NCBI GenBank assembly: GCA_963785075.1
Contig: CAWATW010000001.1
Location: 69,598-133,597 of the forward strand
Direction: 5' to 3'
DNA: 64,000 nucleotides
From: an uncultured bacterium
Lineage (GTDB): Bacteria; Actinomycetota; Acidimicrobiia; Spongiisociales; ZC4RG35
This document shows, in pieces, positions 884 to 44,851 of the stretch. The first letter of the stretch is position 1. Each line of letters opens with the position of its first letter. Made by a program: the position numbers and the translations under genes. The notes beneath the pieces were generated by a model that was given only the letters and a program-made list of their open reading frames with translations, searched no databases and had not been told where the DNA came from.

Positions 884-2263
884 CTACCCCAGCCCTCTCA
901 GCCGACGAGCGAAGACCTCCAGTGTTTCCAGGTACCGATCGGCGTCCTCCTCGGAGTGCTGCACCGAGATCAGCCATTGCTCACCCTTCGTCCACGGCGG
1001 GAGGAACACACCCCGGTTGAACTGCACGAGCCAGGCCGCCAGCGAATAGCGCCCGTCGATGTGCCGAAGAAACTGCCGGTAGTTCGTGATGGGCTCGCGG
1101 CTGTAGACGATCGAGCCCTTGGCGCCGATGTCGAGCACACGGGCTGGGAGCTCGTAGTCCTCCACGATCCGTCGGGCGCCGTCACCCATGCGTCGTTCGA
1201 CCCGTTCCAGGTGTGCGTAGGTCTCGGGCACCATCACCTCGGTGAGCATCGCCCGCGCAGCCGCCATCGAAAGGGGATTGCCGTTGAACGTGCCGACCTG
1301 TTCATAGGTGCCGTCGACAACCAGTGACATCACCTCGTCGGTGCCGCCTATGGCCGACGTGGGCAGCCCACCTCCGAGCGCCTTGGCGAGGCACACGATG
1401 TCGGGAGTGACACCGAACAGCCTCGTCGCTCCTCCGCGACCGAGTGTCAGGCCCGTCTTCACCTCGTCGAACGTCAACAAGGCGCCGTGCTTCCTCGTGA
1501 GTTCCCGGACCCCTTCGAGGAACCCGTCGAGCGGCGGAACGAGTCCGCAGTTCATGAGCACGGGCTCCATGATCACGCCGGCGATCCGGCCGGCGTGCTC
1601 TTCGAAGATCGATGTGAGCACGTCGAGGTCGTTGAACACCGCCACCTTGGTCAGATCCACCAACGCCTGTGGGATTCCCGGCGAATAGGCGACGCTCGCC
1701 GGCCGCTCGGCGGGCCCGAGATCCTCCTCGACCCAGGTGGAGACCTGGACGGAGTCGTGGTGACCGTGGTAGCCGCCTTCGAACTTCACGATCAGGTCGC
1801 GACCGGTGAACGCTCGCATGAGGTGGACGGCGTCCATCGTGCACTCGGTGCCGCTGTTCCCAAAGCGCCAGAGCGGGAGCCCGTAGCGATCGCTCAGGTT
1901 CTCGGCCACCACCACCGCGTCTTCGGTGGGCTGGGCGAAGTGGGTTCCTCGAGCGACCCTGTCGGCCACCGCCCTGACGATGGCCGGATGGGCGTGCCCC
2001 GCCAGCATGGCGCCGTAGCCGCCGTGGAGGTCGACGTATTCGTTTCCGTCGACATCGAAGACTCGGGAGCCCCTGCCACCGTCCGCCCAGATCGGATGGG
2101 GAAACGAGATCTGCCAGCTCGAGGTGACGCCACCGGCGAGCGATCGCGAGGCGCGATCGGTCATCGCCTTCGAGATCTGCATCCGGTCGAGGAACCGTTG
2201 CCGCTCGTCATCGATGATCCGGTCGAGGGTCTCGAGCTCGGTCTCCTGGCTGGTCGCCACCAT
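884..2263 (-). CDS. class-III pyridoxal-phosphate aminotransferase (GSA/GABA/omega-aminotransferase family)
   Basis: 459 aa with class-III aminotransferase-type conserved blocks (GGYGAMLAGHAHP, FGNSGTECTMDAVHLMRAFTGR, FDEVKTGLTLGRGG). Start at 2263 lies 7 nt downstream of the ABC ATPase start region; its stop is followed closely by the ABC ATPase start, so the two are coupled. Confidence 0.85.
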   Translation of the reverse strand: MVATSQETELETLDRIIDDERQRFLDRMQISKAMTDRASRSLAGGVTSSWQISFPHPIWADGGRGSRVFDVDGNEYVDLHGGYGAMLAGHAHPAIVRAVADRVARGTHFAQPTEDAVVVAENLSDRYGLPLWRFGNSGTECTMDAVHLMRAFTGRDLIVKFEGGYHGHHDSVQVSTWVEEDLGPAERPASVAYSPGIPQALVDLTKVAVFNDLDVLTSIFEEHAGRIAGVIMEPVLMNCGLVPPLDGFLEGVRELTRKHGALLTFDEVKTGLTLGRGGATRLFGVTPDIVCLAKALGGGLPTSAIGGTDEVMSLVVDGTYEQVGTFNGNPLSMAAARAMLTEVMVPETYAHLERVERRMGDGARRIVEDYELPARVLDIGAKGSIVYSREPITNYRQFLRHIDGRYSLAAWLVQFNRGVFLPPWTKGEQWLISVQHSEEDADRYLETLEVFARRLRGLG

Positions 2264-2334: not shown

Positions 2335-3531
2335 ATGCCCCGACCGGTGCCGCTCGACCCTGCGGCCGTGACCGATCTCCTACGTCCGTTCGGTACCAGT
2401 CGCACGCTCCCCGCTGCGGCCTATCGATCCCGTGATGTCTTCGACTGGGAGGTCGAGAACATCTTCGGGGGCGGATGGACGTGCCTCGGACGAACCGACG
2501 ACCTGCTCGCGCCGGGACAGATACGCGCGATCCGCCATGGTGGCGAAGAGTTCCTGCTCGTTCGTGAGGGTGACGGACGGGTTGCAGGATTCTCGAATGT
2601 GTGCCGGCATCGCGGGCACCCGTTGGTGGAACCGGGCGAACCTATCGATGCCCGCCAGATCCGCTGCCCGTATCACTCGTGGGCGTATCGCCTGGACGGC
2701 GCCCTGCGAACCGCGCCCACCTTGACTCGGTCGCCGGACTTCGACACCGCCGACTGGCCGCTCCGGGCGGTACGGGTGGAGGAGTGGCTCGGGTGGTTGT
2801 TTCTCGACCCGTCGGGCTCGGCGCCGTCGGTGGTCGACACCTACGGCAACCTCGCCGAGACCCTCCGGCAGTACGAGCCCGAGCGTCTCGTCCGCGCAGA
2901 GCGTCACTCATACCAAGTCGCCGCCAACTGGAAATTGATCGTCGAGAACTATCACGAGTGCTACCACTGCTCTTCGATCCACCCGGCGCTGTGCGAAGTG
3001 ACGCCGATCGACAGCGGGTCCGACTTCCGTCCGACGGGGCTGTGGTGCGGCGGCACGATGGACCTCAAGGATCATGCCGTGACGATGTCGCTCACAGGCG
3101 AGTCGGGAGGCACCTTCTTCCGACGCCTGGAGAGGGAGATGGAGCGGCAGGTCCTCTACATAGGCCTTTGGCCCAATCTGTTGATCTCGGCGCATCCCGA
3201 CTACCTGATGACCCATCGCATCGTTCCGCTCGCCGCCGACCGTTCACATGTCGAGTGTGACTGGTACTTCTCACCGGAATCGACGTCGCTCGAGGGATTC
3301 GATCCGGCGTACGCAGTCGACTTCTGGGACCTCACCAATCGTGAGGATTGGACCGCCTGCGAGCGAGTGCAACGGGGTGCGGGAAACCGAGGGTTTGCGC
3401 CCGGACCCCTGAGCCCCTGGGAGTCGACGCTGTATCAGTTCCTCGGCATGGTCGGTCGGGCCTACTCGGGCGAGGTGGTCGTACCGCCGGAGGCGCCTTC
3501 GAGGCGTCTGGCCGAGTCGAGAGGCGACTGA
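2335..3531 (+). CDS. Rieske [2Fe-2S] non-heme-iron oxygenase alpha subunit, GbcA/CntA/Stc2 (quaternary-amine) clade
   Basis: Rieske motif CRHRGHPL...CPYHSWAY. Catalytic signature NWKLIVENYHECYHCSSIHP is typical of glycine-betaine/carnitine/stachydrine N-demethylating oxygenases. No cognate reductase gene is adjacent. Confidence 0.85.
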   Translation: MPRPVPLDPAAVTDLLRPFGTSRTLPAAAYRSRDVFDWEVENIFGGGWTCLGRTDDLLAPGQIRAIRHGGEEFLLVREGDGRVAGFSNVCRHRGHPLVEPGEPIDARQIRCPYHSWAYRLDGALRTAPTLTRSPDFDTADWPLRAVRVEEWLGWLFLDPSGSAPSVVDTYGNLAETLRQYEPERLVRAERHSYQVAANWKLIVENYHECYHCSSIHPALCEVTPIDSGSDFRPTGLWCGGTMDLKDHAVTMSLTGESGGTFFRRLEREMERQVLYIGLWPNLLISAHPDYLMTHRIVPLAADRSHVECDWYFSPESTSLEGFDPAYAVDFWDLTNREDWTACERVQRGAGNRGFAPGPLSPWESTLYQFLGMVGRAYSGEVVVPPEAPSRRLAESRGD

Positions 3532-3545
3532 ATCGAGTCCCCCGT

Positions 3546-4766
3546 CTACCCGGCGACGATCCCCAAGCCACGTTTCCTCAGCTGGTCGGCGATGATCACC
3601 CGCTGCACCTCTGAAGCCCCCTCCCAGATCCTGTCCACCCGGAGTTCACGGTTGAATCGTTCGGCGACGTTCTCGCGCATGTATCCCCGACCGCCGAAGA
3701 TCTGAACGGCGCGGTCCGCCACCCGGCATGCCATCTCGGATGCGTACAGCTTCACCATCGAGCAGTGGACGTGGAGTTGCTTGACATCCGCTCCGGCATC
3801 GACCTCTGCAGCCACCTCGTAGGTCATCAGCCGTGCCGCCCAGAGCTCGGTGAGCGAATCGGCGAGCATGAACTGGATCGCCTGACGATCGGCCAGGGGC
3901 TCACCGAAGATGACCCGCTGCTCGGCGAACGCCTGTGCTTCCGTGATCAGCCGCTCGGCTGCGCCACAGCACCGGGCCGCGATCATCAGGCGTTCGTACC
4001 TGAACCACTCGTATGTGAACGACATGCCGGCGCCCTCCCCACCGACCAGGTGCGTCGCCGGAACCCTCACGTCGTCGAAGGCCATCTCCCAATGGTGGTG
4101 GGCGTAGGTGTGTGTGTAGGACGGGGTGCGGATGTGCCGGACGCCGGGCGTGTCCATGTCCACGATGAACAGGGCGTGGCCGCCGGCGTCGGGTCCATTC
4201 GTCAGCCGGGCCTGGAAGAACACGTAGTCGGCCAGATTGGCGGAGGTGACGTGCCACTTCTGTCCATTGAGTACGTAGTGGTCGCCATCGCGGCGTGCAG
4301 TCGCCTTGATGGCGTCGACGTCAGAACCTGCGTCTTCCTCCGTGATCGCATAGCACTCGTGCTTCTCCCCGGCGATGGTGGGGAGGACATATCGCTCCAT
4401 CTGGTAGTCCGAGGCGACCGTCGGCAGCCACCCTGCGGGCGTGGTGACGACCCAGCCGAGGGCGTTGGTGACCCGGCCCGCCTGCTCTTGGACCAGCGCC
4501 TGTTGGACGGTGGTCAGCCCGGAGCCTCCGAGTTCGATGGGCTGATTGATGGCCGTGAGGCCCATCTCGCGCGCCGTCCGCTCGTGGCGGGCGGAGACGT
4601 CCGCGGGGATGGTGCCGTCATTCATCTCGGCGTGGACTTCCCACGGTATCAATTCGGTGTCGACGAACCGGCGAGCCGTGTCTTGGATCGCCCGGTCCTC
4701 TTCTGACAGTCGGATCACCACAGCTCCCTGTTTCCTGAACGACGGTTCAGTGTACGAGTTCGACAC
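3546..4766 (-). CDS. acyl-CoA dehydrogenase
   Basis: 406 aa. Contains ACAD C-terminal motifs QIFGGRGYMRENVAERFNRELRVDRIWEGASEVQR and the middle domain GQKWHVTSANLADYVF. Confidence 0.85.
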   Translation of the reverse strand: MSNSYTEPSFRKQGAVVIRLSEEDRAIQDTARRFVDTELIPWEVHAEMNDGTIPADVSARHERTAREMGLTAINQPIELGGSGLTTVQQALVQEQAGRVTNALGWVVTTPAGWLPTVASDYQMERYVLPTIAGEKHECYAITEEDAGSDVDAIKATARRDGDHYVLNGQKWHVTSANLADYVFFQARLTNGPDAGGHALFIVDMDTPGVRHIRTPSYTHTYAHHHWEMAFDDVRVPATHLVGGEGAGMSFTYEWFRYERLMIAARCCGAAERLITEAQAFAEQRVIFGEPLADRQAIQFMLADSLTELWAARLMTYEVAAEVDAGADVKQLHVHCSMVKLYASEMACRVADRAVQIFGGRGYMRENVAERFNRELRVDRIWEGASEVQRVIIADQLRKRGLGIVAG

Positions 4767-4830: not shown

Positions 4831-5878
4831 TCAGGGGATGATGACGGTGCGGGCCGGGCCCCGGTTGGCTTCGAGGTCGTCCATCACACCGTTGACCGCA
4901 GCTGCCTCGAGAGGAACACGTTGTTCGACGACCTGACCGAGTTCGAGGCGACCGCGAACCGCCATGTCGAGGAGCACGAGGATGTCGTCGATGTGATGGT
5001 CCGATACGCCGCTGAGCTCCGCCTCGCGCATCGCCAACTCCGGGAACGGGGCCACCTCGATCGGCTGATCCGAGATCCCAACCGACACGGCCCGTCCTCC
5101 GATCCCCAGGACATCCACACAGGCGCGCATGGTCGCGGCGAGCCCGATCAGCTCGAGCGCGACGTCGACACCGTCGCCGTCGGTGGCGGCCAGCACCCGG
5201 TCGGCCACGCCGTCACCGCCTTCGATCGGGGCTCGCACCGAGACGCGCGGCGAGGTCGAGTTTGGCGGGATCGAGGTCCACGGCAAGTACTCGTGAGGCG
5301 CCCATGGCGAGGGCGATCTGGATCGCCGACGTCCCCAATCCACCCGATCCGAACACCGCCACGCTCTCACCATTCGTGAGTCGGGCCTTGCGAAAGGCAT
5401 GCATGGACGTGGCCGACGAGCACATCATCACCGCCCCGTGCTCGAACGCGATCTCGTCGGGGAGGTGGATGGCGTTGCGCGACGGCACGGTGATGTACTC
5501 GGCATACCCACCGTCGCGGCTTCTCCCCAGCATCTGTCCGCTCTCGCAGAACTGGTCGTATCCGCGTGCACATCGGGCAGCAGGCCGTACAGGCGGTCTG
5601 ATAGTGGAGGCAGACTCGCTCGACCGGTTCGTCCCGGATCCACGAGCGAGCCCGTCCGTTCGATCACCCCGGCCACTTCGTGTCCGAGCGTCCTCGGCAG
5701 GGAATCGACCGACCGTGGGCCGCGTCGGTAGTGAACGTCCGAGTGGCAGATCCCGGCGGCAGCCACCTTGACCACCACGTCCAAGGGGTCGGGTTCGGTG
5801 GTCGGCAGTTCCCTCGATTCGAGGGGTGATCCGATCTCGACCAGTTGCAGGGCGCGCATGCCGAGCATGCTCGCAGGT
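4831..5878 (-). pseudogene. Zn-dependent alcohol dehydrogenase (MDR family), split over at least three frames
   Basis: N-terminal part (GICHSDVHYRRG...TLGHEVAGVIE) sits in the frame of ORF 5428..7446. The middle part (CARGYDQFCESGQ...DGGYAEYITVP...AVFGSGGLGTSAIQIALAMGA) is in ORF 5213..5920. The C-terminal part is in ORF 4831..5400. Total span is about 349 codons, so at least two frameshifts. Confidence 0.5.
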
Positions 5879-5951: not shown

Positions 5952-7388
5952 TCAGAGCTTGATGTAGAGCTGTTTCTCTTCGAGGTAGGCCTCGATGCCC
6001 CACGGTCCGAGCTCGCGTCCCACCCCCGACTGCTTGAAACCTCCCCACATGCCTTCCGTCGGTGCCGGCTGGGAGTCGTTCACCCATACGACCCCGGCGC
6101 GGAGCGCCCTGCCGAGGCGCATCGCCCGCTTGAGATCGGTCGTCCACACCGCCGCCGCCAGCCCGTAGGTCGAGTCGTTCGCCAGCAGTATCGCCTCGTC
6201 TTCGTCGCGGAAGGGAATCACCGACATGACCGGTCCAAAGATCTCCTCCCGGGCGATCGTCATGCGGTTGTCCACGTCGGCGAAGATCGTGGGGGCGACG
6301 AAGTAGCCGTCTGCCAGGTCGTTCCCCTCGGGGAGGTTGCCCTGGAAACTGAGGCGAGCGCCTTCGCTCATCCCCGTGGAGATGTAGCCGGACACCTTGT
6401 CGCGGTGCTCCGCCGAGATCAGCGGACCCATGGTCGTGTGGGGATCGAGGCCGCTTCCAAGACGTATGGCCGCCGCCTCGGCGGTCAAGGCGCCGAGAGT
6501 CTCTTCGTAGATGGACGCCTCGACCAATACCCGGCTTCCTGCCGAACACACCTCGCCCTGGTTGGCGAACAGCCCGGCCGACGTCCCTCCGATGGCGGCC
6601 GACATGTCCGCATCGGCGAAGATGAGGTTCGGCGACTTGCCGCCCAGTTCGAGGGTGACTCGTTTGAGGGTGTCGGAGGCTTCCCTGGTGATGATCTTTC
6701 CGACCTCGACGGACCCTGTGAACGAGATCTTGTCGACCCCGGCATGGCCGACGAGTGACGCCCCCGTCTCGCCGAAGCCGGTGAGCACGTTGAAGACGCC
6801 CGCCGGCAGGCCTGCCTCGTCCAACACCGTTGCCAGCTCCAACGCGGTGAGCGGCGTCTGTTCTGCCGGTTTCAGGATGGCAGTGCATCCCGCGGCGAGC
6901 GCCGGCGCCACCTTCTGGCTGGCCATGAGGATCGGGTAGTTCCACGGGGTGATCAGCGCCGCCACCCCGACGGGCTCCTTGATGACGAGGCTCAGCGCCT
7001 CCGGACCGATCGGGGGGATGCTCCCCATCGTCTTGGTGGCCCATCCGGCGTAGTACTCGAACATGAAGGCGGCTTCGTCGATGTCCCACAGGGCGTCCTC
7101 GAGCGGTTTGCCGTTGTCGCGTACCTCGATCTCGGCCAGCTCCCGTCTCCGCCGCCGGATGATCTCGGCGGCTCTGAACAGCACGGCCGCCCGGTCCCGG
7201 GGAGCCGAGTCCGGGCCCCAGGGCCCGTGGTCGAACGCTCGTCGGGCCGCACCGACCGCCTGTTCCACGTCGTCGGGCCCGGCGACGGGAATCTCGTCGA
7301 TCACCTGACCGGTTGCCGGGTCGCGGGTGTCGAACCAGGTTCCCGAACGCGGCTCGGCCCACGCGCCGTCGATGAAGAGCTGTCGCAT
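5952..7388 (-). CDS. NAD(P)-dependent aldehyde dehydrogenase
   Basis: Embedded in ORF 5952..8273, starting MRQLFIDGAW. ALDH motifs are present: TLELGGKSP, catalytic Cys region GEVCSAGSRVLV, and EEIFGPV. The start overlaps the upstream gene's stop (TGATG). Confidence 0.9.
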   Translation of the reverse strand: MRQLFIDGAWAEPRSGTWFDTRDPATGQVIDEIPVAGPDDVEQAVGAARRAFDHGPWGPDSAPRDRAAVLFRAAEIIRRRRRELAEIEVRDNGKPLEDALWDIDEAAFMFEYYAGWATKTMGSIPPIGPEALSLVIKEPVGVAALITPWNYPILMASQKVAPALAAGCTAILKPAEQTPLTALELATVLDEAGLPAGVFNVLTGFGETGASLVGHAGVDKISFTGSVEVGKIITREASDTLKRVTLELGGKSPNLIFADADMSAAIGGTSAGLFANQGEVCSAGSRVLVEASIYEETLGALTAEAAAIRLGSGLDPHTTMGPLISAEHRDKVSGYISTGMSEGARLSFQGNLPEGNDLADGYFVAPTIFADVDNRMTIAREEIFGPVMSVIPFRDEDEAILLANDSTYGLAAAVWTTDLKRAMRLGRALRAGVVWVNDSQPAPTEGMWGGFKQSGVGRELGPWGIEAYLEEKQLYIKL

Positions 7389-8983
7389 CAGGAACGCGCC
7401 GCTCGGTCTCGAAGGATCTGCTGGGAGGCGAGACGGCCCGGCGCACCCATCACACAGCCCCCGGGGTGGGTGCCCGATCCACACTGGTAGTACCCCTCGA
7501 TCGGTGTCCGGTACTGACTCCACCCTGGGGCGGGCCGGAAGAAGAACATCTGGGGGGCGAGAAACTCGCCGTGGAAGATGTTGCCCTCGGGAAGGCCGGC
7601 GATCTGTTCGATGTCGAGCGGAGTGACGACCTCGCGTTGGATCACACGCTCGGAGAAGCCCGGGAAGAACGACTCGAGCGTTCGTTGCACCGTGTCGCCG
7701 AGGTTGTCCCGTTCGGTGTTCCAATCGCTGCCCTTCAGCTCGTACGGGGCGTATTGGACGAAACACGACATCACGTGCTTGCCGGGCGGAGCCATGTCGG
7801 GATCGATTGCAGACTGAACGGCGCAGTCGAGGTACGGGCGGGACGAATACCAGCCGTACTTCGCATCGTCGAACGCCCGCTCGAGGTACTCGATGCTCGG
7901 CCCGATGTTGGTGAACCCGCGGTACTTGTCGATCCCGTCGCCAAGCGTGGGGTGCGGGGGAGGAGCGTCGAGTGCGAAGTTCACCTTGGCGGATGTCCCC
8001 TGATAGCGATATCGATCGAGAGCGTCCACCAACTCGGTCGGCAGCTCTCGGGGATCGACGAAGTCGAAGAACGTCCGCCTCGGATCGGCGGCGCTCACCA
8101 CCACATCGGCCGAGAGCTCGGTGCCATCGGCCAGCGCCACGCCGGTGGCACGTCCGTTGTCGGTGACGACATGGGCGACTTCGGTTCCCAGCATGATCTC
8201 GGCGCCGAAGCTCTCGGCGGCTCGGGCCAGCACCTGGGTGAATCCGCCATTCCCGCCCTTGTGGAACGCCCACGCGCCGAACACCCCGTCGTGCTCACCC
8301 ATGTTGTGGAACAAGAGCACGAGCCCCGAGCCCTGCGACATCGGCCCGACCTTGGTGCCGATGATTCCGGAACTGGCGAGCCACCCCTTCACCACGTCGG
8401 ACTCGAAGTAGTCGTCGAGGAAGTCGGATGCGCTTCCGGTGAGCAGGCGGACGAGGTTGTGCAGCACCCTCGGTTCGAGCCCACGCATGTGTTGGGCCAG
8501 CTCCGCCATGTCCGCCAGATCTTCCGGCGTCTTGCCGAGGACGTTCGGAGGGATCTTGTCGAACCATGGGCGCACGGCCTGGATCACCCTCGTGATGTCG
8601 TGCTCGTATTGTTCGAAGGCGTCGGCGTCGCGCTTGGAGTGCCGTGCGATCTCGTGGATGTTCTCGTTTCGGTCCTGGCCGAGAAGCAGATAGTCCCCGT
8701 TCTCCATCGGGCAGAAAGTGCTTGGCATGAGCAGTGGCATGAAGCCGTGCTTGGTGAGCTCGAGCTCGTGGATGATCTGGGGCCGGAGCAGGCTCAGGGC
8801 GTACGAGAAGGTGGTGAAGTTGAACCCCGGCCGTAGCTCCTCGGTTATGGCGGCCCCTCCGACGATCGAACGTCGCTCGAGGATCAGCGTGTCGAGTCCC
8901 GCCTTCGCCAGGTAGGCGCCGTTGGTGAGGCCGTTGTGGCCTCCGCCGATCACGATGGCGTCGTAGGTGCGGTCGCTCGGCAT
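7388..8983 (-). CDS. FAD/NAD(P)-binding oxidoreductase, phytoene-desaturase-like (COG1233 amine-oxidase superfamily)
   Basis: Starts MPSDRTYDAIVIGGGHNGLTNGAYLAKAGL (Rossmann GxGxxG). About 531 aa. Both the start and the stop overlap neighbouring genes by ATGA. Confidence 0.8.
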   Translation of the reverse strand: MPSDRTYDAIVIGGGHNGLTNGAYLAKAGLDTLILERRSIVGGAAITEELRPGFNFTTFSYALSLLRPQIIHELELTKHGFMPLLMPSTFCPMENGDYLLLGQDRNENIHEIARHSKRDADAFEQYEHDITRVIQAVRPWFDKIPPNVLGKTPEDLADMAELAQHMRGLEPRVLHNLVRLLTGSASDFLDDYFESDVVKGWLASSGIIGTKVGPMSQGSGLVLLFHNMGEHDGVFGAWAFHKGGNGGFTQVLARAAESFGAEIMLGTEVAHVVTDNGRATGVALADGTELSADVVVSAADPRRTFFDFVDPRELPTELVDALDRYRYQGTSAKVNFALDAPPPHPTLGDGIDKYRGFTNIGPSIEYLERAFDDAKYGWYSSRPYLDCAVQSAIDPDMAPPGKHVMSCFVQYAPYELKGSDWNTERDNLGDTVQRTLESFFPGFSERVIQREVVTPLDIEQIAGLPEGNIFHGEFLAPQMFFFRPAPGWSQYRTPIEGYYQCGSGTHPGGCVMGAPGRLASQQILRDRAARS

Positions 8984-10182
8984 CAACTGGTCTTTCTCTC
9001 GGGGTTGAACAACGGGAGCCGGGCCGTATGGGCCCCCACCAGCTGGTACTGATGGTCGATCGTGTATTCGAGGTTCACCTTGGTACCAGGCGTGGCGGCC
9101 TCGGGTCGGACCCGGGCCAGGGCGATGTGGCGTTGGAGCATCGGCGAGTACATCGAGCTGGTGGCGTATCCGACACGGCTGCCGTCGTCGGTGTACACCA
9201 TCATGTCCTCTTGGATGGGCGTGTGGTCCTTCGGCGGTATGAGACCGGCCCGGGTGTATTGGGCGTCGTAGTCCTCCCAATCGACCATGAGCCCGACCAT
9301 CTTCCAGCGAGTGGAGCCGTCGGCCAGTTCCCGGCGAATCGCGTCCCGACCGATGAAGGCACGGTCGGTCGTGGTGACGTCCTTGAGCATCCACCCCAAC
9401 CCCAATTCGTGCGGCGTCGAGCGGTGGGCATCGTTGAACGCGAAGCGCGCCGACTCGAAATCGACGTTGATGAGCAGCAAGCCGGCCTCGATGCGAGCCA
9501 TGATGAGCGCGATCTGGCCGAAGGGAATCAGTCCGTACGGTCGACCTTCGTCCATGACCGCGTCCCACACCGTGAGCGCGTCGCCGCTGTCGACCCACAC
9601 CTCGTATCCGAGATCCCCCGTGTATCCGGTCCGCGAGATGATGACCGGGGCGTCGGCGATCTTCGCCGTCGTGTGGTCGAAGTATCCGATCGACTCCATC
9701 TCCGGAGCCAGCTTGGCGAGGATCTGCCGGCTCTTGGGTCCCTGTACCGCGAAGGCCGCCATCTCGTAGGTCGTGTCGACGATCTCGACCTGGAGCCGAC
9801 CCGCGAGATCGTGGAAATAGGCCATGTTCGGCTCGGCGGTGCTGAGGAGAAACTCGTCTGCCGACAGTCGGAGGATCACTCCGTCTTCGAGCACGAAGCC
9901 CCGATCGTCGCACCAGATCTGATATTGGGCCTGGCCGGGACGGCATGTGCGGATGTCGCGAGCGAGCACTCCGGCCAGGAACCGCTCGGCGTCGGAGCCC
10001 CGGATGCGGTACTTGAACAACGGCGACGTGTCGAAGATGCCGGCGGAGTTGCGGATCGCGAAGTACTCGAACTTCTCGCTCATCTGGTACTTCTCGGCAA
10101 CCAGATGCCCTGCCCAGTGGCTCCACAGGCCGGTCTCGTTCAGTTTCTCGACGCGGTCGTGGAACGGAGTGGTGCGTATCAC
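8983..10182 (-). CDS. GcvT-family (glycine-cleavage T / DmdA-like) folate-dependent aminomethyltransferase
   Basis: 399 aa. Contains the GcvT-type block RTGYTGDLGYEVWV and a folate-binding domain-like C-terminus. It is the first gene of the minus-strand operon. Confidence 0.85.
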   Translation of the reverse strand: MIRTTPFHDRVEKLNETGLWSHWAGHLVAEKYQMSEKFEYFAIRNSAGIFDTSPLFKYRIRGSDAERFLAGVLARDIRTCRPGQAQYQIWCDDRGFVLEDGVILRLSADEFLLSTAEPNMAYFHDLAGRLQVEIVDTTYEMAAFAVQGPKSRQILAKLAPEMESIGYFDHTTAKIADAPVIISRTGYTGDLGYEVWVDSGDALTVWDAVMDEGRPYGLIPFGQIALIMARIEAGLLLINVDFESARFAFNDAHRSTPHELGLGWMLKDVTTTDRAFIGRDAIRRELADGSTRWKMVGLMVDWEDYDAQYTRAGLIPPKDHTPIQEDMMVYTDDGSRVGYATSSMYSPMLQRHIALARVRPEAATPGTKVNLEYTIDHQYQLVGAHTARLPLFNPERKTS

Positions 10183-10431
10183 GGGTCGTTCTCCCTCTCA
10201 GGCGCCTCCCTCGACGCCGTCCTCGCCCAGACTATATGTTGTTGGACGCGTGTGCAGCAATGGCGAGAGGCGGTTTCCGGTCCCCGCTGTCGAGCCTCGG
10301 ACCTCGGACCCGACACCAATGCGGCACGTCCGCCGTACGACCGTGGGTGGGTTGACCCGGACACCGGACTCTCTCGCCCCACCGACTGACCTTGCTCGTT
10401 GCTTCCCCATGACCGGATCTAGGCTCGGTCC

Positions 10432-11040
10432 ATGCGCCGCATGCAACCAGAGGATCGCCGTCAGGCGATCATCGACGCCGCGGTCGCGGTGGCGCTGAGA
10501 AAGGGATTGGCGGCCACCACCGCCCGGGATGTGGCAGCCGAGATGGGGACATCGTCCGGTCTGATCCATCACTACTTCGATTCGATGGACGACGTACTCG
10601 CATCCGCGTTCGAAGTCGTTGCGGCCGCGGATCTCAACCGGACCACCTCGGCGATGGAGCTGGCGTCGGACCCGGTCGACAAGCTGAGAGCCTTTTTCGC
10701 CGACTACGCACCGGCGGACGACGATCGTGCGTACCAGTTGTGGCTCGACGCGTGGTCGGAGGCGGCCCGCCGACCCGCCCTCCGGACCACGTCGCTGCGG
10801 CTCAACGAAGCCTGGCAACAGGAACTCGCCAAGGTGATCGCCGACGGCGCCGTCGAGGGCTCTCCGGCCTCTCAGGACCCCGACGGAGCGGCATGGCGCG
10901 TGATCTCGATGCTCGATGGCCTGGCCCTCCAGGTGGTGGCACATCGGGCCAACGTCAGTCGGTCCACTGCGCTCGGCTGGGCCATCACCATGACCGAACA
11001 CGAGCTCGGTCTCGCCCAGGGAACGCTTCGACACCCATGA
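10432..11040 (+). CDS. TetR-family transcriptional regulator
   Basis: N-terminal HTH LAATTARDVAAEMGTSSGLIHHYF. 202 aa. Transcribed divergently from the demethylase operon. Confidence 0.85.
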   Translation: MRRMQPEDRRQAIIDAAVAVALRKGLAATTARDVAAEMGTSSGLIHHYFDSMDDVLASAFEVVAAADLNRTTSAMELASDPVDKLRAFFADYAPADDDRAYQLWLDAWSEAARRPALRTTSLRLNEAWQQELAKVIADGAVEGSPASQDPDGAAWRVISMLDGLALQVVAHRANVSRSTALGWAITMTEHELGLAQGTLRHP

Positions 11041-40222: not shown

Positions 40223-41248
40223 TCAGTCCCACTCCAGTAGGACCTTGCCGCAGTGTCCGCTTTCGGCCACTTCGAAGGCTCTCCGGTGTTCGTTCATCGG
40301 AAAGCGGTGCGTCACCGCCGCCGAGATGTCGAGTCCGCTCTGGAGCATGGCAGCCATCTTGTACCAGGTCTCGAAGATCCGTCTGCCATAGATCCCCTGG
40401 ACCGTGAGACCTTTGAAGATGACGTCGTTGACGTCCAGGGTCATCGGTCCAGGGGGAATGCCGAGTGCTGCGATCCGCCCGCCGTGGTTGACGACATCGA
40501 GCATCTGGTTGAAGGCCGCTTCCGCACCAGACATCTCGAGTCCCACGTCGAAGCCCTCGGTCATCCCGAGTTCGGACATGACGGCATCGAGGCGCTCGGA
40601 GGAGACGTCGACGACGCGGTCGGCGCCCATCCTGGAGGCCATCTCGAGTCGGTATGAGTTGACGTCCGTGACCACGACGAATCGAGCTCCGATGTGACGG
40701 GCGATGGCGGTCGCCATCACCCCGATCGGGCCTGCGCCCGTGATGAGCACGTCCTCTCCCACGAGGTCGAACTTGAGAGCGGTATGGGTGGCATTGCCGA
40801 GCGGGTCGAGTACGGCGGCGACCTCGTCGTCGATGTGGTCGGGTATCGGAAACACGTTGGCGGCCGGGATCACGAGGTATTCGGCGTACGCCCCCGGCCT
40901 CGACACACCCACGCTGAGATGGTTGTGGCAGAACTCGCGACGACCGGCCCTGCAGTTCCGGCAGTGACCACAGGTGATGTGCCCCTCACCGGCCACGCGC
41001 TGGCCGACCGCCAATCCTTCGACACCATCGCCCAGCGCCACGATCTCTCCCATGAATTCGTGGCCGACGACCATGGGTACCGGAATCGTCTGGGCCGCCC
41101 AGTCGTCCCAGCGGTCGATGTGCAGATCGGTGCCACAGATCGAAGTCTTCCGCACACGGATCTTCACGTCATGATGCCCGGCGTCGGGCTCGGGGACGTC
41201 GGTGAGGTCGAGCCCGGGCGCCGGGGCGGCTTTCACGAGAGCCTTCAC
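40223..41248 (-). CDS. tdh: L-threonine 3-dehydrogenase
   Basis: GTG start [13 protein letters not shown] overlaps the kbl stop (GTGA). Zn-ADH motifs [30 protein letters not shown]. The track ORF over-extends the N-terminus. Confidence 0.85.
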
Positions 41249-42435
41249 CCGACCACCCCCAGCTCCGACCCGACCTCGGCGAAGGCATCGACGGCACGAT
41301 CGATGTCGTCGAAGGTGTGAGCGGCCGACATCTGGGTTCGGATCCGTGCGGCGCCCTCCGGGACCACGGGATACGAGAACGCGATCACGTAGATGCCACG
41401 GTCGAGGAGCCTGTCGGCCATGGCGCCGGCGAGCTTGGCATCGCCGAGCATCACCGGGATGATGGGATGGCCGGCGCCCGCCAGTGTGAACCCGGCATCC
41501 ACCATGCCGCGGCGGAAACGTTCCGAGTTGTCGGCCAGGCGGCGCCTGAGCTCCTTCGAGGACTCCACCATGTCGAGCGCCGTGATGGTGGTGGCGGCAA
41601 TCACCGGTGCCAGGCTGTTGGAGAAGAGGTACGGGCGCGATCGCTGCCGAAGCCACTCGATGATCTCACGAGAGCCGCTCGTGTAGCCACCGGAGGCGCC
41701 GCCCAGTGCCTTGCCGAGCGTGCCTGTGATGATGTCGACCCGCCCTTCCACGCCTGTGGCTTCGGGCGTGCCTCGACCTCCTTCACCCACGAAGCCGACC
41801 GCGTGGGAGTCGTCCACCATCACGAGCGCGTCGTGGGTCTCGGCCAGATCGCAGATCGCCGGGAGGTCGGCGACCGAGCCGTCCATCGAGAACACGCCGT
41901 CGGTCGCAATGAGGCGGTGTTTGGCGTCCCGGGCCTCGATCAGCCGTCGCTCGAGATCTTTCATGTCGCTGTTGGCGTATCGCAGTCGGCGCGCCTTGCA
42001 CAGTCTGATGCCGTCGATGATCGAGGCATGGTTGAGACTGTCCGAGATGATTGCATCGTCTCCGCCGAGGATCGTCTCGAACAGCCCGGTGTTGGCGTCG
42101 AAACACGATGAGTACAGGATCGTGTCCTCGGTGCCCAAGAACTGCGATATCCGTCGTTCGAGTTCCTTGTGGATGTCCTGCGTCCCGCAGATGAAGCGGA
42201 CGGAGGCCATGCCGTAGCCCCGCTGCGCCAACGCATTCCTCGCCGCTTCGACGATGCGAGGATCGTCGGCGAGTCCCAGATAGTTGTTGGCGCAGAAGTT
42301 CACGACCTGCGTGCCGTCGTCCAGGGTTATGTGGGCGTCCTGGGGTGAGCCGATCACGCGCTCCGATTTGTACAGGCCGTCGGCGCGCACACTATCGAGA
42401 CGAGAAGCCAGGTCAGCGAGCAGCGAAGTTCTCAT
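41245..42435 (-). CDS. kbl: 2-amino-3-ketobutyrate CoA ligase (glycine C-acetyltransferase)
   Basis: 396 aa. PLP-lysine region FSNSLAP...[15 protein letters not shown]. Typical KBL N-terminus [17 protein letters not shown]. Confidence 0.85.
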
Positions 42436-42598
42436 GATGCAGACGGTACCGAGTCTCGGGTGCCGGGTCCCGGGTCTCGGGTCACCAGTCTCGGGTCTCG
42501 GACGGCGTTCGCTGCGGCGTCGGCTGTCGGCCGGCTGCCGTTCACCCTGCGCCGACCACTGGCCGCGCAGCGCGGTTCGGCGTCACACGCTCGCTTTC

Positions 42599-43934
42599 TC
42601 AGAGCTGCCCGGTGTCGGCGTCGTCCATCGCCGCGACGTACTGGGGGTCGTCGAACCTACGTGGCAGGAACGCCGACGCATATTCGGGGAGCGGGGAGGA
42701 GGTGGCGTGGAGGGCGGCGAGCTCCCCTGCTGCCGCCGCGATCATCACCCCGAATCCAGACATCGCCCCGCATACGATCGACCCGGCAGGCCCGGATGGT
42801 CCGATCAACGGCATGTTGTCGGGTGCCTTGGTGTAGAAGCCGCCATCGACGAATGGCTGCGGCAGGTGATCCCGGTACGCACCGAGCGCCGGGAGCATCG
42901 TGGACATCCCGCGCATCACGACCTCCGGATACAGGTCGTCGGTCTGCATCGGCCATCGTGGTTCCATCACCGTGCGGTCGTACTCCCAGAGCGCAACCAG
43001 CCACTGCGAGTCCCCGGCGCCTTCGGGGCGGCCATGGCAGAACCCAGGCAGTGTCTCGGTGAGCTCGGCTCGGCCCGCCTCGAGCAGGAGCCCACGCTCC
43101 ACCGCCGACCATCCGAGGGTTTGCGGATCGCACCAGATGAGCATCGGTGCTTCTCGTGGCACGGCGGACATGTGATCGCGGAACGCAACCTTGAAGTGCG
43201 CCTCGGAACGCACGGGCAACTCGACTCCCGTCATCGATGCCACGTATGGGAGCATCGGCCCCGCGGCATTCACGATGGTGCCGGCAGCGATGCGAGAGGA
43301 ATCGCCGAGGACCACCCCGCTCACCGCCGACCCGCTCGTCGAGACATCCACGACCTGTCGAGGCACCACCCGAACACCTCGATCCCGTGCCTCGTTCAGC
43401 ATCCACGTGCCGAACTGTTGGGCCGACATCCAGCCGGCACGGCGGGCGTGCACGGCGCCGATGGCGTCTGGTGAGAGGTACGGAAAGTGTTGATCCAACC
43501 CGTCGCGATCCAGGACGTCGGCGCCGTCGATGCTCGCAACCCCCGCCGCGTGATGCGGTCGATAGTCGGACACACCATCGTGGTCCCGCAGCTCACCTGC
43601 GCCGTGATGTTGGGCCCGGAGCCCGTCGGACCGCAGTGCCGTCATCTGTTGTGGGTCGGACGTGACATAGAGGTACCCGCGTCGGTTGAGGTTGAAGAAT
43701 CCACCCGAACGCCGGTCGTACCGCTCGAGCAGGTCGATCGACCGGTTCATGATCCGGACCATCGCCGCCGACGGCCACCAGTTGCGATAGCACTCGGTGC
43801 TCTTGTCCGAGGTGAGGGTGAGCGGTGCTCGCGGGTCGCAGATCACGACGTCCTCCACACCGCTGTCGGCGAGGTGAAATGCCGTCGACACGCCGGCGAT
43901 CCCTGCTCCGATCACCACTACCGATGCCTGCATC
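42599..43934 (-). CDS. FAD-dependent oxidoreductase (DAO/glycine-oxidase-like)
   Basis: True start MQASVVVIGAGIAGVSTAF at about 43934. The upstream part of the track ORF is junk. 444 aa. Confidence 0.7.
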
Positions 43935-44029
43935 GGACCGAGGGTAGGCCGGTCGACCGCAGGCCAGGGGAGTCGAATCCAACCTTGGCACGATGGCCGA
44001 AAGGTGGCTGACCCTTTACGCTGACCGCC

Positions 44030-44851
44030 ATGTTGTGGATCGATGCGCCGGGTCCGTTCGTAACTCCGACGCTCGTCGTTGCCATGGACGGATGGGTGAA
44101 TGCCGGGACCGCCGGGACAATGGCGGCGTCGGTGATCGCCGGCGAAGGTGAGGTTGTGGGGCGTTTCGATCCGGATCGGCTCTATGACTATCGAATGCTC
44201 CGGCCGACGATCTTCTTCGAGGACGGCGTGCTGAACCAGGTGGAGTGGCCGGAGATGACCATCCGGCGAGTAACGGTCGAGGGACGAGATCTCCTTGTCA
44301 TGTCCGGGCCCGAGCCCAATTGGGCGTGGCGAGAGATGGCTGAAGCGCTCGTGGACGCCTCTCGGGCGTGGGGCGTCGTCGAGTACGTTGGCATCGGGGG
44401 GGTGCCCTGGGCCGTGCCCCACACCCGACCCGTCACTTTGATGACGACCTCCACGTCGATGGAGCGTCTCCAACGTTGGTCGGACGGTCCACAAGGTGTT
44501 ATGCAGGTCCCGGGGGCGGCCGTGAGCGTCCTCGAACACCAGATGCACCAGGCCGCCATCCCGACGATCGGGTTCTGGGCGCGCGTTCCGAACTACGTCG
44601 GCTCGGCGTTCCCGGCGGCGGCCGAAGCCCTGGTGGCACGGCTCGCCGAGCATCTGGGGGTGAAGCTCGACCCGGGCGAGCTTGCGCAACAGGCGCTCGA
44701 CCATCTCGGCCAGCTCGACAGTCTGATCGGCGAACGTCCGGATGTCGGTGCGATGGTTCGGCAACTCGAGGAGGTATACGACTCGGCCTCGTCGATCTCA
44801 GGTGATGAGCTTGCCGCCGAGATCGAACGATTCCTCCGTGAACAGCGCTGA
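44030..44851 (+). CDS. PAC2 (proteasome assembly chaperone 2)-family protein
   Basis: 273 aa. LVVAMDGWVNAGTAG N-terminal region and overall PAC2-like organisation, common in Actinomycetota. Confidence 0.65.
   Translation: MLWIDAPGPFVTPTLVVAMDGWVNAGTAGTMAASVIAGEGEVVGRFDPDRLYDYRMLRPTIFFEDGVLNQVEWPEMTIRRVTVEGRDLLVMSGPEPNWAWREMAEALVDASRAWGVVEYVGIGGVPWAVPHTRPVTLMTTSTSMERLQRWSDGPQGVMQVPGAAVSVLEHQMHQAAIPTIGFWARVPNYVGSAFPAAAEALVARLAEHLGVKLDPGELAQQALDHLGQLDSLIGERPDVGAMVRQLEEVYDSASSISGDELAAEIERFLREQR

Follow-up and report, generated by a model that had tools for sequence, protein, structure and literature searches.

A conserved gene pair of a GcvT-like protein and a PYROXD2-family flavoprotein as a candidate tetrahydrofolate-linked N-demethylase

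Analysis of a 64,000-nucleotide stretch of DNA from an uncultured acidimicrobial bacterium (the window) revealed a gene for a GcvT-family protein paired with one for a PYROXD2-family FAD flavoprotein, an arrangement that is conserved in three phyla. Judging from sequence and gene context, we consider it fairly probable that the two products are subunits, or obligatorily co-expressed partners, of a tetrahydrofolate (THF)-linked oxidative N-demethylase acting in the catabolism of methylated, betaine-derived amines. We found no description of a GcvT-like/PYROXD2-like flavoprotein pair in the literature.

The pair exactly spans 7388..10182 on the minus strand (Table 1). AGGGAG is found about 9 nt 5' of the GTG start of the GcvT-like gene, and a purine-rich GAGAGAAAGA lies just 5' of its junction with the flavoprotein gene. 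At this junction the GcvT-like stop codon (8985-8983) and the flavoprotein start codon (8983-8981) have one base in common; the same was found for the flavoprotein stop (7390-7388) and the start of the aldehyde dehydrogenase gene (7388-7386; TGATG, 7386-7390). On the coding strand the A of the stop codon is in both cases the A of the next ATG. The initial annotation had described adjacent, translationally coupled genes joined by ATGA overlaps at 8983 and 7388. The genes are indeed separate, on the same strand and overlapping at their stop and start codons, but both overlaps are 1-nt TGATG junctions, and the coupled unit comprises at least three genes because the aldehyde dehydrogenase gene follows that of the flavoprotein.

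Table 1. Features of the window in and around the gene pair
Feature	Position	Strand	Description	Basis
Class-III aminotransferase (omega/beta-type, GSA-aminomutase-like)	884..2263	-		Pfam Aminotran_3; NCBIfam and PDB matches
Rieske non-haem-iron oxygenase alpha subunit, quaternary-amine clade (Stc2/CntA/GbcA-like)	2335..3531	+		Pfam Rieske, Ring_hydroxyl_A
Acyl-CoA dehydrogenase	3546..4766	-		Pfam Acyl-CoA_dh_N/M/1
Zn-dependent alcohol dehydrogenase, broken	4831..5859	-	three-frame translation	Pfam ADH_N, ADH_zinc_N on stitched protein
Aldehyde dehydrogenase, betaine-aldehyde-dehydrogenase-like	5952..7388	-	478 aa	Pfam Aldedh 4.6e-170
PYROXD2-family FAD flavoprotein (Amino_oxidase/CrtI-COG1233 fold)	8983..7388	-	531 aa, ATG start	Pfam Amino_oxidase, NAD_binding_8
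TGATG junction, GcvT-like/flavoprotein	8981..8985	-	stop/start, one shared base	read from sequence
GcvT-family protein	10182..8983	-	399 aa, GTG start	Pfam GCV_T, GCV_T_C
Divergent intergenic region	10183..10431	.	expected site of both promoters and TetR operator	
TetR-family regulator, BetI-type C-terminal domain	10432..11040	+ (divergent)		Pfam TetR_N, TetR_C_6

Conservation of the pairing was assessed in 80 species-level genomes of Actinomycetota, Chloroflexota and Acidobacteriota carrying a flavoprotein orthologue (72-98% identity). A GcvT-like gene was found directly upstream in 78 of the 80, or 79 when a short fragment at a contig edge is counted; the remaining locus has no upstream room. 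The two genes overlap or lie within 9 nt of each other (-4, -1 or 1-9 nt) at 64 of 79 loci. When the search was started from the GcvT-like gene, all three cases checked were paired (3/3), and pairwise distances for the two proteins correlate (r = 0.86). On one complete chromosome the unit consists of TetR, the GcvT-like gene and the flavoprotein gene, and nothing more. Among metagenome loci of paralogous groups, a GcvT-like gene was present within 2.5 kb in 53/80, and in 29/38 of those with flanks on both sides. Paralogous clusters, in which two tandem flavoproteins accompany a GcvT-like gene, occur in Alphaproteobacteria and metagenomes, with annotated operons in Shinella and Fuscovulum. The pairing is beyond chance, and the earlier view that the two genes act as one functional unit is borne out by adjacency, spacing and the reciprocal check alike.

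The flavoprotein has a flavin amine-oxidase domain (PF01593) and fold. It had been assigned to the phytoene-desaturase/COG1233 type, not the DAO type of DMGDH and SoxB, and Pfam, NCBIfam and the nearest structures agree: it matches Amino_oxidase and NAD_binding_8, its best NCBIfam model is CrtO (291 bits, cutoff 1000), crtI_fam is likewise under its cutoff (103 against 238), and its best solved relatives are CrtI (4dgk) and a CrtD-like protein (4rep). The soxB model gave 24 bits against a cutoff of 529. With the AF2 model (pLDDT 90), Foldseek returned 4rep (TM 0.77) and 4dgk first, then NicA2, MAO and putrescine oxidase, with Pnao also a neighbour; identity to any solved member is only 14-18%. 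These matches would suit a CrtO/CrtI-like carotenoid or isoprenoid desaturase or ketolase that lies beside a GcvT paralogue without any meaning. However, the scores are far under the cutoffs, carotenoid genes are absent nearby, and adjacency in 78-79/80 genomes of three phyla, together with the overlap of stop and start codon, speaks against unrelated neighbours, a reading that is strongly disfavoured and to which we give almost no credence. The two-domain FAD fold and PF01593 are also common to LSD1/KDM1, and LSD1 removes lysine N-methyl groups as formaldehyde and has been reported to bind folate. The window flavoprotein differs from LSD1/KDM1 in having no SWIRM or tower domains, and from CrtI in its context, which is not that of a carotenoid pathway. 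The fold does not by itself indicate an amine substrate; we propose that this protein is the amine-oxidising, formaldehyde- or iminium-generating subunit.

Full-length homology connects the flavoprotein with animal PYROXD2, a mitochondrial protein whose reaction is uncharacterised. Identity to the animal proteins is 39-41% (oyster, 39% over 540 aa, E 9e-127), and mayfly and flatworm PYROXD2 are also among the best matches. The flavoprotein orthogroup itself is bacterial, separate and tight, with at least 64% identity inside and at most 48% to all else. The nearest bacterial relatives of eukaryotic PYROXD2 are NC10-type proteins; as these stand alone, with no GcvT-like neighbour, the pairing does not characterise the family as a whole. 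Eukaryotic PYROXD2 likewise lacks an adjacent GcvT gene, and some protist versions have a GFA domain instead. This N-terminal domain (PF04828, formaldehyde-activating) was found on PYROXD2-family proteins in 21 of the best 120 matches to one such fusion, and the fusions recur in protists (EukProt and MMETSP transcripts, Perkinsus olseni PYROXD2); to our knowledge, not all GFA-family domains are proven formaldehyde-activating enzymes. In humans, one missense variant of PYROXD2 accounts for 50% of the plasma variance of N6-methyllysine, 48% of that of N6,N6-dimethyllysine and 21% of that of N-methylpipecolate, and the locus is also tied to urinary TMA and plasma DMA, evidence that is associative.

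The GcvT-like protein matched GCV_T (1.6e-56) and GCV_T_C (2.3e-12). Its top NCBIfam match was the C-terminal half of TMAO demethylase (Tdm; 250 bits, positions 385-759 of 763), a domain that turns channelled formaldehyde into methylene-THF (PMC13619132). GcvT (196 bits), SoxA (182), DmdA (132), LigM (66) and DesA (64) came behind, and the protein falls under the cutoffs of the GcvT, SoxA and DmdA models (182 against 1164 for soxA). The top PDB match was 9q59, residues 407-783 (E 1.7e-45); the DMGO/DMGDH structures 1pj5, 5l46 and 4pab matched at about 1e-19 to 1e-20. E99-D100, SRTGYTGDLGYE and RIEAG are near-invariant among 68 orthologues, and both the catalytic Asp position of the T-protein and the motif of SRTGYTGE type are conserved. 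On these similarities we propose that it is a tetrahydrofolate-binding one-carbon acceptor subunit.

The DmdA, LigM and DesA matches could also mean a DmdA/LigM-type methyltransferase, which would transfer the methyl group of a sulfonium, ammonium or ether substrate intact to THF, giving 5-methyl-THF, while the flavoprotein oxidised the demethylated product or the 5-methyl-THF. DmdA and LigM are stand-alone GcvT-family enzymes, active without any oxidase, and an acyl-CoA dehydrogenase recurs near the pair, recalling DmdC of the DMSP pathway. There is also a precedent for a methyl-THF-reoxidising flavoprotein beside THF-dependent demethylases (PMC11868366). We regard this as unlikely: the methylene-THF-forming members (Tdm C-domain, GcvT, SoxA) score far higher, the protist GFA fusions indicate formaldehyde and not methyl-THF, and the flavoprotein bears no likeness to MTHFR.

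We then considered the neighbouring genes. The aldehyde dehydrogenase reached 558 bits with the TIGR01804 BADH model (cutoff 669); downstream of the pair it was found at only one of the 80 loci (L001) and is a lineage-specific addition. The alcohol dehydrogenase gene carries at least three frameshifts, caused by single-base insertions when compared with the L001 gene, whose 364-codon ORF is intact, and is probably a pseudogene. Together these two genes suggest that entry is by way of an amino-alcohol or betaine aldehyde. The TetR regulator, which matched BetI models at 62-65 bits (under cutoff), is the probable repressor of the operon. A divergent TetR_C_6 regulator was found by tblastn in about 35/80 loci and in four of the five Pfam-annotated orthologous loci (L081, L082, L170, L172); in the fifth (L171), TetR_C_6 genes lie downstream and further upstream, none adjoining the GcvT-like gene. 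No sigma-70-like site or terminator was identified in 10183..10431, whose sole inverted repeat is weak and lies at the TetR start.

The Rieske oxygenase, with GbcA as its top NCBIfam match (169 bits, under cutoff), was closest in the PDB to Stc2 (3vca/4qup, E 2e-40) and CntA (6y8j, 2e-37), with aromatic dioxygenases at about 1e-19, and recurs at about 10-15/80 loci. Recurrent neighbours also include the acyl-CoA dehydrogenase (about 9-12/80 loci, directly 3' of the flavoprotein gene in L002, L016, L020 and L171), the class-III aminotransferase (about 11/80 loci and the alphaproteobacterial operons) and PotABCD-like transporters. The acyl-CoA dehydrogenase and the aminotransferase have no firm place in a demethylase scheme. 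These 'polyamine' transporters and omega-type aminotransferases, along with the structural neighbours putrescine oxidase, NicA2, Pnao and MAO, would fit a polyamine or omega-amine oxidase or dehydrogenase that cleaves an internal C-N bond, with the GcvT-like protein handling an aminomethyl-type fragment or being accessory. We think this improbable, if slightly less so than the methyltransferase, since the polyamine and monoamine oxidases known so far work without a folate protein, and the THF-domain pairing, the Rieske oxygenase, the BetI-type regulator and the PYROXD2 N-methyl genetics fit methyl removal better. SAM-type methyltransferase genes near some relatives might point to the reverse reaction, in which GcvT-bound methylene-THF and reduced flavin methylate a metabolite in biosynthesis; methyltransferases using flavin and methylene-THF, such as ThyX and TrmFO, do exist. 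Such a role is very unlikely given the catabolic context (repressor, uptake transporter, Rieske oxygenases, aldehyde dehydrogenase, aminotransferase) and the lack of ThyX/TrmFO homology.

The proposed N-demethylase was compared with known systems. DMGDH/DMGO, sarcosine dehydrogenase and Arthrobacter 4-methylaminobutyrate oxidase likewise combine FAD-dependent N-methyl oxidation with GcvT-type THF capture, the chemistry proposed for the pair, but each carries both activities on one chain, with a flavin domain of DAO type (PF01266), whereas the pair consists of two proteins and has an Amino_oxidase/CrtI (PYROXD2)-type flavoprotein. The assumption that demethylases of this kind consist of one polypeptide was incomplete: the folate protein is already apart from the oxidising subunit in heterotetrameric sarcosine oxidase, N-methylglutamate dehydrogenase and dimethylamine (DMA) monooxygenase (DmmD). 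A split N-demethylase thus has a precedent in SoxBDAG/MgdABCD, whose flavin and THF-binding subunits are encoded separately and side by side, as in the pair. These systems differ in their DAO-type SoxB, in a SoxA (about 965-1000 aa) enlarged by an NAD/FMN-binding half and in requiring SoxD and SoxG; no SoxD/G-like genes are present with the window pair. In Tdm, to which the GcvT-like protein is most closely related, the GcvT-like domain is fused in cis to a Zn-containing DUF1989 core that makes the formaldehyde, with no flavoprotein. DmmD acts as a THF-binding formaldehyde acceptor. Like the GcvT-like protein it stands alone beside a non-DAO oxidising enzyme, in its case one of methylamine catabolism, although its partner is a multi-subunit monooxygenase and not a PYROXD2-type flavoprotein; as an 'aminomethyltransferase family protein' it is given as a component of the dimethylamine step of DmmDABC (10.64898/2026.06.26.734754). 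Because a separate folate protein is already known from these systems, what is new is the type of flavoprotein and not the split. The suggestion of a possibly novel two-component N-demethylase holds in part, with the conserved unit and the THF/formaldehyde signs in its favour and the activity a prediction, while the label 'DMGDH-like' presumes a substrate.

The Tdm-like THF domain, the conserved Asp and motif, the PYROXD2-GFA fusions and the amine-oxidase fold point to formaldehyde/THF chemistry; the BetI-type regulator, the BADH-like aldehyde dehydrogenase, the Stc2/CntA/GbcA-like Rieske oxygenase and the human PYROXD2 genetics point to methylamine substrates. In the N-demethylase that we propose, the FAD enzyme would act on an N-methyl group of a secondary or tertiary amine, oxidising its C-N bond to give an iminium ion. 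Either in this form or as released formaldehyde, the one-carbon unit would be handed to the GcvT-like protein, which would join it to tetrahydrofolate, forming 5,10-methylene-THF, and let go of the demethylated amine, a handover that would keep formaldehyde from going free. The operon would be controlled by the BetI-type TetR repressor, and in many genomes the pair would belong to a betaine-type pathway: after uptake by the PotABCD-like transporter, the Rieske oxygenase would take the first methyl off a quaternary amine, the pair would strip the remaining methyl group or groups, and the class-III aminotransferase and aldehyde dehydrogenase would process the resulting primary amine or aldehyde. 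Dimethylglycine/sarcosine-type compounds are candidate substrates, as are omega-N-methylamino acids, for example (di)methylaminobutyrate and N6-methyl-lysine. The bacterial pair also hints at the reaction of human PYROXD2.

The interval 7388..10182 was found to hold two complete genes on the reverse strand, one for a GcvT-like protein (gene 1) and one for a flavoprotein (gene 2), within a window of about 65% G+C. The final base of the gene 1 stop codon (TGA, 8985-8983) is also the first base of the gene 2 ATG (8983-8981), and the stop codon of gene 2 (7390-7388) overlaps the ATG of the following aldehyde dehydrogenase (ALDH) gene by one base in the same manner. Since the coding strand reads TGATG at each junction, the ATGA overlaps described in the initial annotation are 1-nt rather than 4-nt overlaps; its coordinates and the idea of translational coupling stand. 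No usable operator or promoter emerged when the operon and the intergenic region between the divergent genes were scanned for promoters, terminators and inverted repeats, and no tRNA or Rfam elements were detected across the whole window.

Features of the window locus and of related loci (L168-L170 and L172)
Feature	Location	Strand	Details
Gene 1, GcvT-like	10182..8983	-	GTG start, AGGGAG ahead of start, 399 aa
Gene 2, flavoprotein	8983..7388	-	ATG start, 531 aa, N-terminus MPSDRTYDAIVIGGGHNGL
Gene 3, ALDH	7388..5952	-	ATG start overlaps gene 2 stop
Zn-alcohol dehydrogenase (ADH)	4831-5859	-	readable only through at least 3 frameshifts
TetR regulator, BetI-type C-terminal domain	10432..11040		divergent from the pair
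DAO-type flavoprotein ORF	42602-44797	-	Pfam domain starts only at residue 293 of the stop-to-stop frame
Class I/II aminotransferase	41248-42582	-	adjoins the DAO-type flavoprotein ORF
Shinella zoogloeoides p1 operon	L168 8998-13389		TetR, then oxidoreductase - oxidoreductase - 'aminomethyltransferase family protein'
Shinella 'NADH:flavin oxidoreductase'	L168 13636-15672		678 aa, own TetR
Fuscovulum ytuae plasmid cluster	L169 7641-15634		TetR, aminotransferase - 2x oxidoreductase - aminomethyltransferase - 2x Rieske - polyamine-type ABC transporter
Second Amino_oxidase-family gene (Acidimicrobiia)	L170 11941-13215		shorter, 1-2 kb downstream of the pair
Second Amino_oxidase-family gene (Acidimicrobiia)	L172 11207-12316		shorter, 1-2 kb downstream of the pair

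Gene 2 carries a flavin amine-oxidase domain and a Rossmann FAD motif, and its nearest solved sequence is CrtI (4dgk, E 1.6e-19). Together with the NCBIfam matches, this upheld the earlier view that the flavoprotein is of the COG1233/phytoene-desaturase type and not of the DAO type. We rejected assignment as a CrtI/CrtO carotenoid desaturase-ketolase because the scores lay far below the cutoffs (CrtO 290.9 against 1000; crtI_fam 102.9 against 238.1) and because the neighbours are amine/betaine-type catabolic genes; that the protein is an unrelated carotenoid enzyme is extremely improbable. Using an NCBI-named oyster orthologue in place of the human sequence as the animal reference, we found that gene 2 matched the oyster PYROXD2 cluster (P0149/P0273) at 406 bits and 39-41% identity over residues 5-526, and the pairwise comparison gave 39% identity over 540 residues (E 9e-127). 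Mayfly and flatworm PYROXD2 were also among the best cross-cluster matches, with the same result; in NCBI and UniRef these animal proteins are named 'pyridine nucleotide-disulfide oxidoreductase domain-containing protein 2'. Judged by full-length homology, gene 2 belongs to the PYROXD2 family. Within it, the window protein falls in its own bacterial orthogroup, a very tight and very large one, apart from eukaryotic PYROXD2: its best 120 database matches are 76-98% identical, and in a 50%-clustered library one cluster stood at 70% with the next at 48% or below.

The initial annotation had proposed structure prediction, which was carried out for the flavoprotein. An AF2 model from a 60-sequence alignment reached pLDDT 90.3 (an earlier model from 16 close orthologues, pLDDT 57, was discarded), and Foldseek placed it in the CrtI/flavin amine-oxidase superfamily, with 4rep (TM 0.77) and 4dgk on top, followed by NicA2, Pnao, MAO and putrescine oxidase, all matches being only 14-18% identical. 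The predicted fold thus supports the superfamily placement and is compatible with amine oxidation, without proving either that activity or a substrate. One alternative, that a polyamine-like substrate is oxidised at a non-methyl carbon, appears unlikely.

Gene 1 is a member of the GcvT/aminomethyltransferase superfamily (PF01571 and PF08669), with both the folate-binding GCV_T domain (191.9 bits, cutoff 25.6) and the C-terminal barrel that follows it (GCV_T_C, 47.1 bits, cutoff 25.9). It fell below every specific NCBIfam family cutoff. The top match was the C-terminal half of TMAO demethylase (Tdm; 250 bits, model positions 385-759 of 763), ahead of GcvT (196), SoxA (182), DmdA (132) and LigM/DesA (about 65 bits), and the closest solved relative was the corresponding domain of the Paracoccus TMAO demethylase (9q59, residues 407-783, E 1.7e-45). 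A DmdA/LigM-like methyl transfer with oxidation downstream is a quite unlikely reading of the pair. Residues E99-D100 align with the DD of B. subtilis GcvT and of Tdm, in the catalytic Asp region of the T-protein. Across 68 GcvT-like orthologues E99, D100, S183-E194 and R230-G234 were at least 97% conserved, and the near-invariant motifs of the orthogroup are E99-D100, SRTGYTGDLGYE (SRTGYTGE-type) and RIEAG (R-x-E-A-G). A genuine glycine-cleavage T-protein was ruled out (TIGR00528, 147.7 against 235.85; NF001567, 196 against 300), and no gcvH or gcvP was seen in the window neighbourhood or the annotated loci. A full Tdm was likewise ruled out, as the 250 bits compare with at least 1100 required and the DUF1989 core was not matched. 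In the Tdm domain most like gene 1, formaldehyde arrives via a tunnel and yields methylene-THF (PMC13619132).

The pair was compared with DMGDH, DMGO, MABO, SoxBDAG, MgdABCD, Tdm and DmmDABC, which share a similar working logic; it belongs to none of them, because each defining feature tested came out negative. A fused DMGDH/SARDH/DMGO was ruled out by the two ORFs in different frames and the Amino_oxidase/CrtI-type flavin domain. SoxBDAG sarcosine oxidase was ruled out by score (soxA 181.7 against 1164, soxB 24 against 529), and SoxD/G-like genes were not seen in the window neighbourhood or the annotated complete-chromosome locus. To our knowledge, THF-coupled oxidative N-demethylation, itself well known, always employs DAO-type flavoenzymes (DMGDH, SARDH, DMGO, Sox, Mgd) or a metal core (Tdm). 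The split arrangement is not new as such, because Sox, Mgd and DmmD are already split; the new element is the PYROXD2-type flavoprotein as oxidising partner. Literature searches on the bacterial gene pair (GcvT, flavin and Rieske terms, RefSeq product names) returned no description of it.

A one-genome-per-species scan with the flavoprotein gave 80 loci (L001-L080; 72-98% identity; flavoprotein gene at about 8001-9590 in most) from Acidimicrobiia and other Actinomycetota, Chloroflexota and Acidobacteriota. In tblastn searches with the window proteins, 78 of them had the GcvT-like gene immediately upstream in the same orientation, or 79 when a contig-edge fragment was counted; the remaining locus has no upstream sequence. 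Stop-to-start gaps at the 79 loci were -4 or -1 nt (11 loci), 1-9 nt (53) or 13-103 nt (15). In the reverse check, starting from GcvT-like orthologues, the flavoprotein gene was immediately downstream in all three long contigs, two of which have a divergent TetR_C_6 regulator adjoining the pair. On a complete Acidimicrobiia chromosome the unit consists of TetR, GcvT-like and flavoprotein genes and nothing more. Kineosporia sp. R_H_3 (NZ_MWLL01000108) is among the cultured carriers. Pairwise distances of the two proteins are correlated (Pearson 0.86, 68 genomes), the flavoprotein being the more conserved of the two in this set. The two genes thus form a conserved, co-inherited and tightly coupled unit with a divergent BetI-type TetR, a probable repressor, often set among genes for the catabolism of quaternary and methylated amines. 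Natural GcvT-PYROXD2 fusions were not seen in the hit lists searched.

Between phyla (Actinomycetota, Chloroflexota and Acidobacteriota) the flavoprotein orthologues share 72-80% identity, an unusually high level for such distances, while the GcvT-like partner is only 56-80% identical over those loci. The high flavoprotein identity could reflect either horizontal transfer of the module or a very strong constraint.

At the window locus the ALDH is BADH-like (558 bits, cutoff 669). Beyond it lie, in order, the ADH and the genes for an acyl-CoA dehydrogenase, the alpha subunit of a Rieske oxygenase and a class-III aminotransferase. Relative to the intact 364-codon ORF of the closest relative (L001), the ADH has single bases inserted at no fewer than three places (near 5623, 5578 and 5234), which break the gene. 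The 4.2 kb upstream (GcvT-like, flavoprotein, ALDH) aligned to L001 DNA at 91.9% identity with zero gaps, and the window ADH seems to be a true pseudogene and not a product of general assembly errors. In the window lineage, the BADH-like ALDH and the remains of the ADH suggest that the pathway is entered through an amino alcohol or a betaine aldehyde. Among the 80 loci, ALDH and ADH genes follow the pair only in L001, and we therefore rejected them as core parts. Optional but recurrent neighbours are a Rieske oxygenase, an aminotransferase, an acyl-CoA dehydrogenase and a PotABCD-like ABC transporter. The closest structures to the window Rieske protein were the stachydrine demethylase Stc2 (3vca/4qup, E 2e-40) and the carnitine monooxygenase CntA (2e-37), compared with about 1e-19 for aromatic dioxygenases; its top NCBIfam model was GbcA.

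Two annotated Acidimicrobiia loci (L170 and L172) have SAM-methyltransferase genes in the same stretch downstream of the pair as their second Amino_oxidase-family gene. Elsewhere in the window, the DAO-type flavoprotein ORF either has a long N-terminal stretch without assignment or a later true start.

The nearest paralogue groups, 41-53% identical to the window flavoprotein, were scanned in metagenomes, giving a further 80 loci (L088-L167). A GcvT-like gene lay within 2.5 kb in 53 of these, and in 29 of the 38 with at least 1.5 kb on each side; tandem PYROXD2-like genes occurred in 54 of the 80. Often such a cluster also has a pair of Rieske alpha-subunit genes, along with a class-III aminotransferase and an ABC transporter of the polyamine type. 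Annotated examples, bearing generic product names only, were found in Shinella zoogloeoides (MOE34_RS22980-22990) and on a Fuscovulum ytuae plasmid (QF092_RS19765-19775), where the genes overlap or abut. The Shinella operon is accompanied by genes for an ABC transporter, an aminotransferase and a Rieske subunit, and directly after the FAD-FAD-aminomethyltransferase genes comes an NADH:flavin oxidoreductase of 678 aa. Its size and type are those of StcD/DgcA/trimethylamine-dehydrogenase-like N-demethylases, which suggests an island of N-methyl catabolism.

P0142, a PYROXD2-like protein 43% identical to the window flavoprotein, has an N-terminal GFA domain (PF04828, glutathione-dependent formaldehyde-activating enzyme). 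In a search with P0142, PF04828 and flavoprotein domains occurred together in 21 of the best 120 matches, including EukProt and MMETSP transcripts and a Perkinsus olseni protein named PYROXD2 (P0347). The GFA-PYROXD2 fusion is therefore recurrent in protists, in independent transcriptomes and genomes. The NC10-type bacterial relatives, closest to eukaryotic PYROXD2, stand alone without a GcvT-like neighbour, so GcvT pairing was rejected as a family-wide trait; these genes adjoin an amino-acid permease and a methyltransferase. One further look-up led to a eukaryote-like contig lacking annotation.

PYROXD2 ranks among the strongest loci of metabolite genetics. Its missense variant rs2147896 accounts for 50% of the variance in plasma N6-methyllysine, 48% in N6,N6-dimethyllysine and 21% in N-methylpipecolate (PMC8109053), and the locus is linked to urinary trimethylamine and plasma dimethylamine (PMC3169529). 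Biallelic PYROXD2 variants cause an infantile mitochondrial disorder (PMC8777681). In the literature to mid-2026, we found PYROXD2 without an assigned reaction and nothing relevant on its enzymology, a demethylase role or formaldehyde.

Judging from gene association and homology, the pair is probably a two-component, THF-linked oxidative N-demethylase. The flavoprotein would oxidise the C-N bond of an N-methyl group and the GcvT-like partner would pass the one-carbon unit to THF; operation in the reverse direction, as a reductive methylation, is very unlikely. The demethylase proposal is supported by three independent associations: the THF/formaldehyde-trapping partner in bacteria, the GFA domain in protists and the genetics of N-methyl metabolites in humans. 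More tentatively, the bacterial operon and the protist fusions might reveal the whole PYROXD2 family as formaldehyde-releasing oxidative demethylases of free N-methylated amines, a generalisation that we hold with some doubt.

If true, human PYROXD2 would be the missing mitochondrial enzyme that demethylates small methylamines and metabolites of the N6-methyl-lysine type, explaining one of the strongest human metabolite loci and a severe infantile mitochondrial disorder. The conserved operon turns the role of PYROXD2 into a directly testable hypothesis, and it also supplies soluble bacterial proteins that come with a defined partner, together with a TetR regulator; the ligand of the latter should reveal the substrate. 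The pair itself would be an unrecognised and widespread route from methylamine carbon to the folate pool in soil Actinomycetota, Chloroflexota and Acidobacteriota, the logic of THF-coupled demethylation having apparently been rebuilt around flavoproteins of another lineage, the PYROXD2 family. The module, which has no name and is apparently unstudied, is widespread, being present in hundreds of uncultured soil and sediment genomes from several phyla, and may represent an important, so far overlooked, sink of methylated amines and betaines.
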